Shown: piece after piece, positions 11,502 to 11,731 of the stretch
How positions within the stretch are numbered: position 1 is the stretch's first letter
Layout of the letters: the number at the start of each line of letters is the position of its first letter
NCBI RefSeq assembly: GCF_029227855.1
Contig: NZ_CP074356.1
From: Escherichia coli
Lineage (GTDB): Bacteria > Pseudomonadota > Gammaproteobacteria > Enterobacterales > Enterobacteriaceae
Length of the DNA: 64,000 nucleotides
Strand: one strand, 5' to 3'
Notes under the pieces: model-generated
What the model was told of the DNA's origin: nothing
Seen by the model: the letters and a program-made list of their open reading frames with translations, nothing else
The model's database searches: none
Made by a program: the position numbers and the translations under genes

Positions 11502-11731
11502 ATTTCGCTTTTCAGCCATTTTATCTGCTGAATTCCCCATCGTCTGCGATGATGGGGACAACGTACCTCCCATCATCTTCTGTAACCATAATCCACCTCT
11601 GCAAGAGAAATTCTTCGTGAATGAGTTTACAGCTATTCATCATCTTCATCCCTTTGAGCGATTTTTGATAGTTTCTCCAGGTAATACTCCCTAAAACTGT
11701 CTTATTTAGTCAACGTAAGAGGATTACAATC

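Follow-up and report, generated by a model that had tools for sequence, protein, structure and literature searches.

In Escherichia coli strains that carry the espY3 islet, a stable stem-loop lacking a U-tract lies shortly downstream of the yajO stop codon. We propose, with a probability of roughly 0.45 and on the strength of sequence features, that this hairpin caps and protects the 3′ end of yajO mRNA, that a Rho loading site follows it, and that the pair may insulate espY3 from transcriptional read-through. All coordinates below refer to the window, that is, the whole 64,000-nucleotide stretch of DNA that was analysed.

Structure and stability of the hairpin

The two arms of the stem, CCCCATCGTC (11535–11544) and GATGATGGGG (11548–11557), enclose the triplet TGC and are flanked on the + strand by ...GAATT and ACAACG...; a closing U-A pair widens the hairpin to 11534–11558. 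The + strand stem-loop, U-CCCCAUCGUC-UGC-GAUGAUGGGG-A in RNA, comprises 11 pairs (7 of them G-C) and a 3-nt loop, without a U-tract, and its sole wobble is G11542·U11550 (T11550 in the DNA). The first-pass annotation of this locus had recognised a stable hairpin here, but had placed it 2–3 nt too low, at 11532–11556, and had described a 10-bp stem, a count that holds only if the G11542·T11550 wobble is included and that in RNA rises to 11 with the closing U-A pair. Its estimate that the stem starts about 30 bp after yajO agrees with the 32-nt gap that separates the stem from the yajO stop codon (11499–11501). On the other side, 173 nt lie between the stem and the ATG of espY3 (11732).

Folding of the + strand RNA gave a free energy of −17.9 kcal/mol (z = −4.78), a stability matched by 0 of 200 dinucleotide shuffles, whose mean was −6.8 ± 2.3 kcal/mol. 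The − strand folded more weakly (−14.0 kcal/mol, z = −3.6), because the G·U wobble turns into a C·A mismatch on that strand. In addition, the inverted-repeat finder returned the same two arms (repeat I22), and ensemble folding yielded pair probabilities of 0.96–1.0 for the hairpin within contexts of 210–400 nt; in a single 700-nt global fold, the pair probability was down to 0.06. Across the window, 128 of the 127,936 33-nt windows (0.1%) folded at −17.9 kcal/mol or better, and the hairpin ranked ~31st in stability among the 145 distinct loci at −15 kcal/mol or better; hairpins of equal strength occur about once per 2 kb per strand pair. The hairpin is genuine and non-random for its local composition, yet unexceptional for 64 kb of E. 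coli DNA. It has one match only in the window, with no extra copies at up to 3 mismatches, and an Rfam covariance-model scan returned nothing overlapping 11500–11700, even at E ≤ 10.

The earlier remark that no T-run follows the stem on either strand was confirmed by reading both tails, ACAACGUAC on the + strand and AAUUCAGCAG on the − strand. T accounts for 1 of 9 nt past the stem on the + strand and for 2 of 10 nt on the − strand, and a terminator scan of the window made no call at the hairpin site.

The tract downstream of the stem

Directly 3′ of the stem, the + strand is C-rich and G-poor from 11559 to 11640, and this composition makes the tract a candidate Rho-utilisation (rut) region. 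The 78-nt windows that start at 11558–11580 contain 20–22 C versus 9–10 G (C/G 2.0–2.44), which places them in the top 0.5–2% of all 78-nt windows on both strands, and the tract holds 15 YC dimers per 83 nt, compared with 9.3 ± 3.3 in the background. The subset of windows with starts at 11558–11575 has 21–22 C and 9–10 G (C/G 2.1–2.44; top 0.5–1.3%), and for the 78 nt directly downstream of the stem C/G is 2.2–2.44 (top 0.5–1% of the window). Of the 145 hairpin loci, 110 have no T-rich tail, and only 3 of the 145 combine this feature with a downstream C/G of at least 2; the yajO hairpin is the most stable of the three and has the highest downstream C/G. The DNA between the stem and espY3 had been described in the first-pass annotation as 175 bp of AT-rich, promoter-like sequence. 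These 173 nt are indeed AT-rich (~38% G+C vs. 50% for the window); a consensus scan found no sigma-70-like site between the stem and espY3, so that the promoter-like character is unconfirmed.

Three further elements of the spacer were considered and rejected. A third segment, UCCCAUCAUC (11569–11578, + strand), could pair with the 3′ arm to form an alternative 10-bp stem of −14.7 kcal/mol; such an attenuator-like switch folds in isolation, but its ensemble probability is ~0 and the segment is polymorphic, reading TCCCATCACC in most alleles and TCTCATCACC in metagenomic alleles. A 6-bp stem predicted upstream of the hairpin (11511–11532) is disrupted in most alleles by polymorphisms at 11514/11515. 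Finally, strain GPEC856 has a 1-nt insertion that shifts the frame of a − strand ORF of 42 aa (11521–11649).

In strain 88COLEC, an IS10-type element (annotated as ISVsa5) is inserted directly 3′ of the hairpin (L004, 2172–3500; window 11559–11567). Its 9-bp target duplication, GACAAGGTA, extends from the last stem base to 8 nt beyond, and the insertion splits the hairpin from the C-rich tract and espY3.

The hairpin lies within the espY3 islet

On the + strand, dxs (8610–10472) is followed by yajO (10527–11501), which encodes an aldo-keto reductase of 324 aa and whose mRNA would have its 3′ end at the hairpin. The espY3 islet (11502–13479) then takes the place of the REP-type yajO–pgpA spacer and is followed on the − strand by pgpA (13480–13995) and thiL (13973–14950). 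Within the islet, espY3 (11732–13303, + strand; named as in RefSeq genomes) is a pentapeptide-repeat T3SS effector gene of 523 aa, with 32% G+C vs. 53% in the flanking genes. The islet measures ~1.98 kb from the yajO stop codon to the pgpA stop codon. In O157:H7, OI-26 is 1983 bp long and contains the single ORF espY3/Z0521 (PMC8565820), and the EspY3 protein has been characterised (PMC6313403). The hairpin-bearing segment is the known O-island OI-26. Downstream of espY3, the right end of the islet contains a canonical terminator-like hairpin, AGTGCCCCAAAATTGGGGCACT (13399–13420, + strand), whose tail is T-rich. This second hairpin stands 60 nt from the pgpA stop codon and faces the 3′ end of pgpA, and it probably also serves as the 3′ structure of that gene.

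Comparison of islet and K-12 alleles by megablast showed that homology breaks off precisely at the stop codon of yajO and starts again at the last pgpA codon. The end of pgpA itself differs between the two types. In islet strains, PgpA has 171 aa and its gene ends ...ATT CTT TAA (window 13480–13485); the Salmonella and Citrobacter outgroups likewise have 171 aa and a TAA stop (spacer-proximal TTAAA...), and the K-12 gene encodes 172 aa and ends ...CTG TCG TAG (L001, 506–514). Since the 171-aa, TAA-terminated form is common to islet strains and outgroups, the K-12-type junction is derived at the pgpA end, and the polarity could therefore be either islet gain or islet loss with REP replacement.

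A boundary structure of the acquired segment had also been suggested for the hairpin. By location this is correct, as the hairpin is islet DNA adjoining the left boundary, 32 nt inside the junction, and occurs in the 934 islet genomes described below and in no others of the survey set. Nothing suggests a role in mobility. At the right edge of the islet there was no direct or inverted repeat matching the hairpin and no convincing boundary repeat pair, a tRNA/tmRNA scan found none, and the ORF list contained no integrase or transposase ORF in the islet, of which espY3 is the only gene. Without a partner repeat, a recombinase or a tRNA, the hairpin bears no marks of a mobility structure.

The yajO–pgpA spacer in islet-free genomes

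The K-12 (BW25113) yajO–pgpA spacer is 53 bp long and carries a different palindrome, GGCCTGATGAGACGTGACAAGCGTCACATCAGGC, that is unrelated to the hairpin. This palindrome is dispersed over 5–45 places per E. coli genome (median 18), and it is therefore a REP-type element. Four outgroups were reached via their YajO proteins (Salmonella enterica, Citrobacter koseri, C. amalonaticus and one further Citrobacter). All four have the order dxs–yajO–pgpA–thiL with spacers of 60–116 bp made up of REP/BIME palindromes (GCCGGATAAGGC...GCCATCCGGC), and direct comparison found no trace of the CCCCATCGTC...GATGATGGGG hairpin in any of the four spacers. In K-12 and the outgroups alike, the corresponding position holds a REP palindrome, so that yajO is as a rule followed by a 3′ structure here.

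The hairpin resembles REP/BIME palindromes in being a G+C-rich extragenic palindrome between convergent genes, with the same expected role as a stabiliser of mRNA 3′ ends. It differs from them in that its sequence is unrelated and present in one copy per genome, whereas the K-12 spacer palindrome occupies a median of 18 places. Moreover, its shape (3-nt loop, 11-bp stem) departs from that of the REP consensus, and in a comparison with the K-12, Salmonella and Citrobacter spacers it did not match the consensus sequence (GCCGGATG.../GCCTGATG... ...CATCCGGC/CATCAGGC). Ordinary REP-type palindromes are found elsewhere in the window, at 43468–43500, 45490–45522 and 5737–5783 (GCCTGATAAGA...CATCAGGC, GCCGGATGCGACGC...TATCCGGC); the strain thus owns the usual REP families, without one between yajO and pgpA.

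Distribution and conservation

The distribution of the hairpin was determined in a survey set of 5426 complete E. coli genomes. The 230-bp yajO–espY3 spacer matched 934 of them, always on the chromosome and at the yajO–espY3 locus. A 41-nt query centred on the hairpin found the same 934 genomes, at one place each, and had zero matches in the remaining genomes of the set, even at E ≤ 10. The first-pass annotation had named absence from both the K-12 interval and other strains with the islet as the outcome that would refute its reading; the hairpin is absent from K-12, but it is present in every islet-bearing strain examined. Phage and plasmid collections yielded no copy of the hairpin in phages or true plasmids. 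The sole "plasmid" matches, NZ_CP141089.1 and NZ_CP134663.1 (PLSDB), are 4.9-Mb E. coli records and evidently mislabelled chromosomes. A GTDB-wide scan for EspY3 found no other species and returned only two contigs of a "Collinsella sp." MAG. These contigs (JAIJJM010000929.1 and JAIJJM010000965.1; L012 and L013) consist of 99–100% identical E. coli yajO–espY3 DNA including the hairpin, which almost certainly reflects binning contamination.

Among the 934 islet genomes, the 41-nt query was identical in 874 and had one mismatch in 60. Two of these 60, ABW_A19 and 23CRST011, were read together with KV7, and all three KV7-type alleles carry C11562G, which lies outside the stem. The sole stem variant among the sampled alleles, G11548A, opens the loop-closing pair and was found in a genome reached via a divergent EspY3 allele. 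No compensatory change or covariation was seen in the stem among the sampled alleles. The positions immediately flanking the stem vary among alleles, and the spacer alleles are 94–100% identical overall. In nine unbiased haplotypes, 1 of 25 hairpin sites was variable vs. 22 of 206 in the rest of the spacer (Fisher p = 0.48), 33 of 200 at the yajO 3′ end and 46 of 200 at the espY3 5′ end. The conservation of the hairpin is too uniform to demonstrate selection, and function is inseparable from the youth of the islet in these data. A metagenome scan with a degenerate stem pattern recovered 13 E. coli-type loci as well as unrelated environmental palindromes; because the search pattern fixed the stem, these loci are unusable as a test of stem conservation.

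EspY3 alleles at 78% and 89% protein identity occupy the same locus and have the same spacer and the same hairpin. Between allele types, the 5′ half of espY3 is only 52–83% identical in DNA (window 11727–12326 vs. L014, 3001–3600), and the 3′ half is ~90–98% and the upstream spacer 96–99% identical. The divergent EspY3 allele has 509 aa vs. 523 aa and 78% protein identity overall. A hypervariable N-terminal half of EspY3 at a fixed locus suggests allelic replacement or diversifying selection.

The conservation data bear directly on the reading that competes most closely with a protective cap, namely that the hairpin is a neutral passenger with no present function, such as a decayed donor terminator that was imported with espY3 and kept since the islet is young and little diverged. 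At 94–100% spacer identity, an invariant 25-mer is expected by chance; covariation is lacking, hairpins of equal strength are not rare in the window, and the one stem variant simply opens the loop-closing pair. On the other hand, both flanks of the stem vary and the stem does not, and the missing T-tail, the top downstream C/G, the position 32 nt after the stop codon and the wobble that favours the sense strand form a rare conjunction (3 of 145 loci). We consider a neutral leftover somewhat unlikely on balance, but it remains a serious rival to the protective cap.

A putative 3′ cap coupled to Rho-dependent termination

The position 32 nt from the stop codon, the stem favoured on the sense strand and the C-rich, G-poor RNA that follows it all point to the yajO transcript. 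As the U-tract needed for release is absent, RNA polymerase transcribing yajO would read past the stem-loop. Rho may then load on the tract from 11559 to about 11640 and would terminate transcription at some point in the AT-rich stretch before espY3. The resulting tail would be degraded by the 3′-to-5′ exonucleases PNPase and RNase II as far as the base of the stem, and the stem would then set and protect the 3′ end that yajO mRNA has at steady state. A further consequence would be that the AT-rich, horizontally acquired espY3 is shielded from yajO read-through. The hairpin would take over the job that the REP palindrome has in K-12-type strains, as an unrelated single-copy sequence that was either brought by the islet or arose in it. 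Together with the terminator-like hairpin at 13399–13420, one bidirectional REP element would thereby be replaced by two hairpins flanking espY3.

Stem-loops of this kind are well documented. In E. coli, the steady-state ends of Rho-dependent transcripts lie directly after stable stem-loops without a uridine-rich tail, with enrichment of cytosine over guanosine and rut sites immediately downstream; the stem-loops give protection from PNPase and RNase II, and REP elements account for only 24% of them (Dar & Sorek, 2018; NAR 46:6797, PMC6061677). The yajO hairpin resembles them in its stability, its location soon after a stop codon, its lack of a uridine-rich tail and its non-REP sequence, and the downstream RNA shows the same rut-like excess of C over G. 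Two differences are to be noted. The published class is defined by a mapped 3′ end, Rho dependence and protection from exonucleases, whereas the assignment made here is by sequence features alone. Furthermore, the hairpin belongs to an islet found only in some strains, and the K-12 strain of the 2018 study lacks this DNA.

Published 3′-end data are available for the K-12 locus. The supplement of Adams et al. (2021; PMC7815308) records early Rho-dependent termination near the 5′ end of yajO, with a strong Rho-dependent 3′ end right at the beginning of the gene, and lists MG1655 positions 438135 (−) and 437416 (+) for the yajO–pgpA locus. It also records Rho-dependent read-through antisense to yajO from the pgpA side in K-12. 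The convergent genes yajO and pgpA are thus both already known Rho clients, and the early termination within yajO implies that few transcripts may reach the hairpin. The Sakai small-gene supplements do not mention the yajO–espY3 locus.

Other explanations

Efficient intrinsic release by E. coli RNA polymerase requires a U-rich tract, and this makes it very unlikely that the hairpin stops or pauses the polymerase by itself without one, whether as an intrinsic terminator of a weak or atypical kind or as a pause site that depends on the hairpin. The hairpin does share with intrinsic terminators, such as that at 13399–13420 in the same islet, a G+C-rich stem-loop downstream of a gene, and its energy is similar, within the range of −17 to −26 kcal/mol seen for the canonical terminators of the window. 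It differs from them in that the defining 7–8-nt U-rich tract is absent on both strands, and the terminator scan gave no call.

The stem-loop and its rut-like tract might also act as a conditional gate, through which transcription of yajO would run into espY3 when Rho activity is low, as under stress or host-associated conditions, or when an antiterminator acts. We regard this as decidedly improbable. If it were true, espY3, a gene of the H-NS-type AT-rich class, would be expressed independently of its own promoter, and the fact that the module is strictly kept in espY3 alleles with protein differences of up to 22% would reflect selection on the gate.

It is very unlikely that the arms act as DNA, that is, as an operator (inverted repeat CCCCATC-N9-GATGGGG) bound by a dimeric regulator of espY3, comparable to the nle regulatory inverted repeat, NRIR, upstream of some nle genes. 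The position of the repeat, 173 bp ahead of an effector gene with undescribed regulation, would suit such a function, and NRIR-type motifs are known for other non-LEE effectors (PMC7142665). The sequence is, however, single-copy in all E. coli carriers, including O157:H7 and EPEC strains with NRIR genes; moreover, its arms are non-complementary as DNA at the point where the RNA has a G·U pair, and it lies far from any predicted promoter.

More improbable still is a long espY3 leader that starts at a promoter within the 3′ end of yajO and bears the hairpin as a stabilising stem-loop at its 5′ terminus. In favour of this reading, the 230-bp spacer is better conserved between allele types than the 5′ half of espY3 (96–99% vs. 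52–83%), but no + strand sigma-70-like site was found in 11300–11534, and a leader that is rich in C and unstructured downstream of the hairpin would be more conducive to Rho termination than to expression. Finally, the proposal of the first-pass annotation that the hairpin is a remnant of the yajO–pgpA intergenic terminator that preceded the insertion is effectively refuted: the hairpin occupies the same relative place after yajO as the K-12 palindrome, but it has no sequence relation to the K-12, Salmonella or Citrobacter spacers, all of which carry REP/BIME-type palindromes, and its 41-mer was found in 0 of the 4492 islet-free E. coli genomes at E ≤ 10.

Implications

On the protective-cap reading, the hairpin is a new instance of a well-described kind of stem-loop inside a known O-island, with little import beyond annotation, and the idea that it is ancestral spacer DNA is corrected here. 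If this reading is true, the islet illustrates how a short stretch of acquired DNA can carry in, or evolve, a 3′-end structure for an adjacent core gene when it removes the REP element shared by two convergent genes, and how Rho can keep a foreign, AT-rich effector gene apart from housekeeping transcription. For studies of espY3 regulation, the hairpin marks the likely end of yajO read-through.
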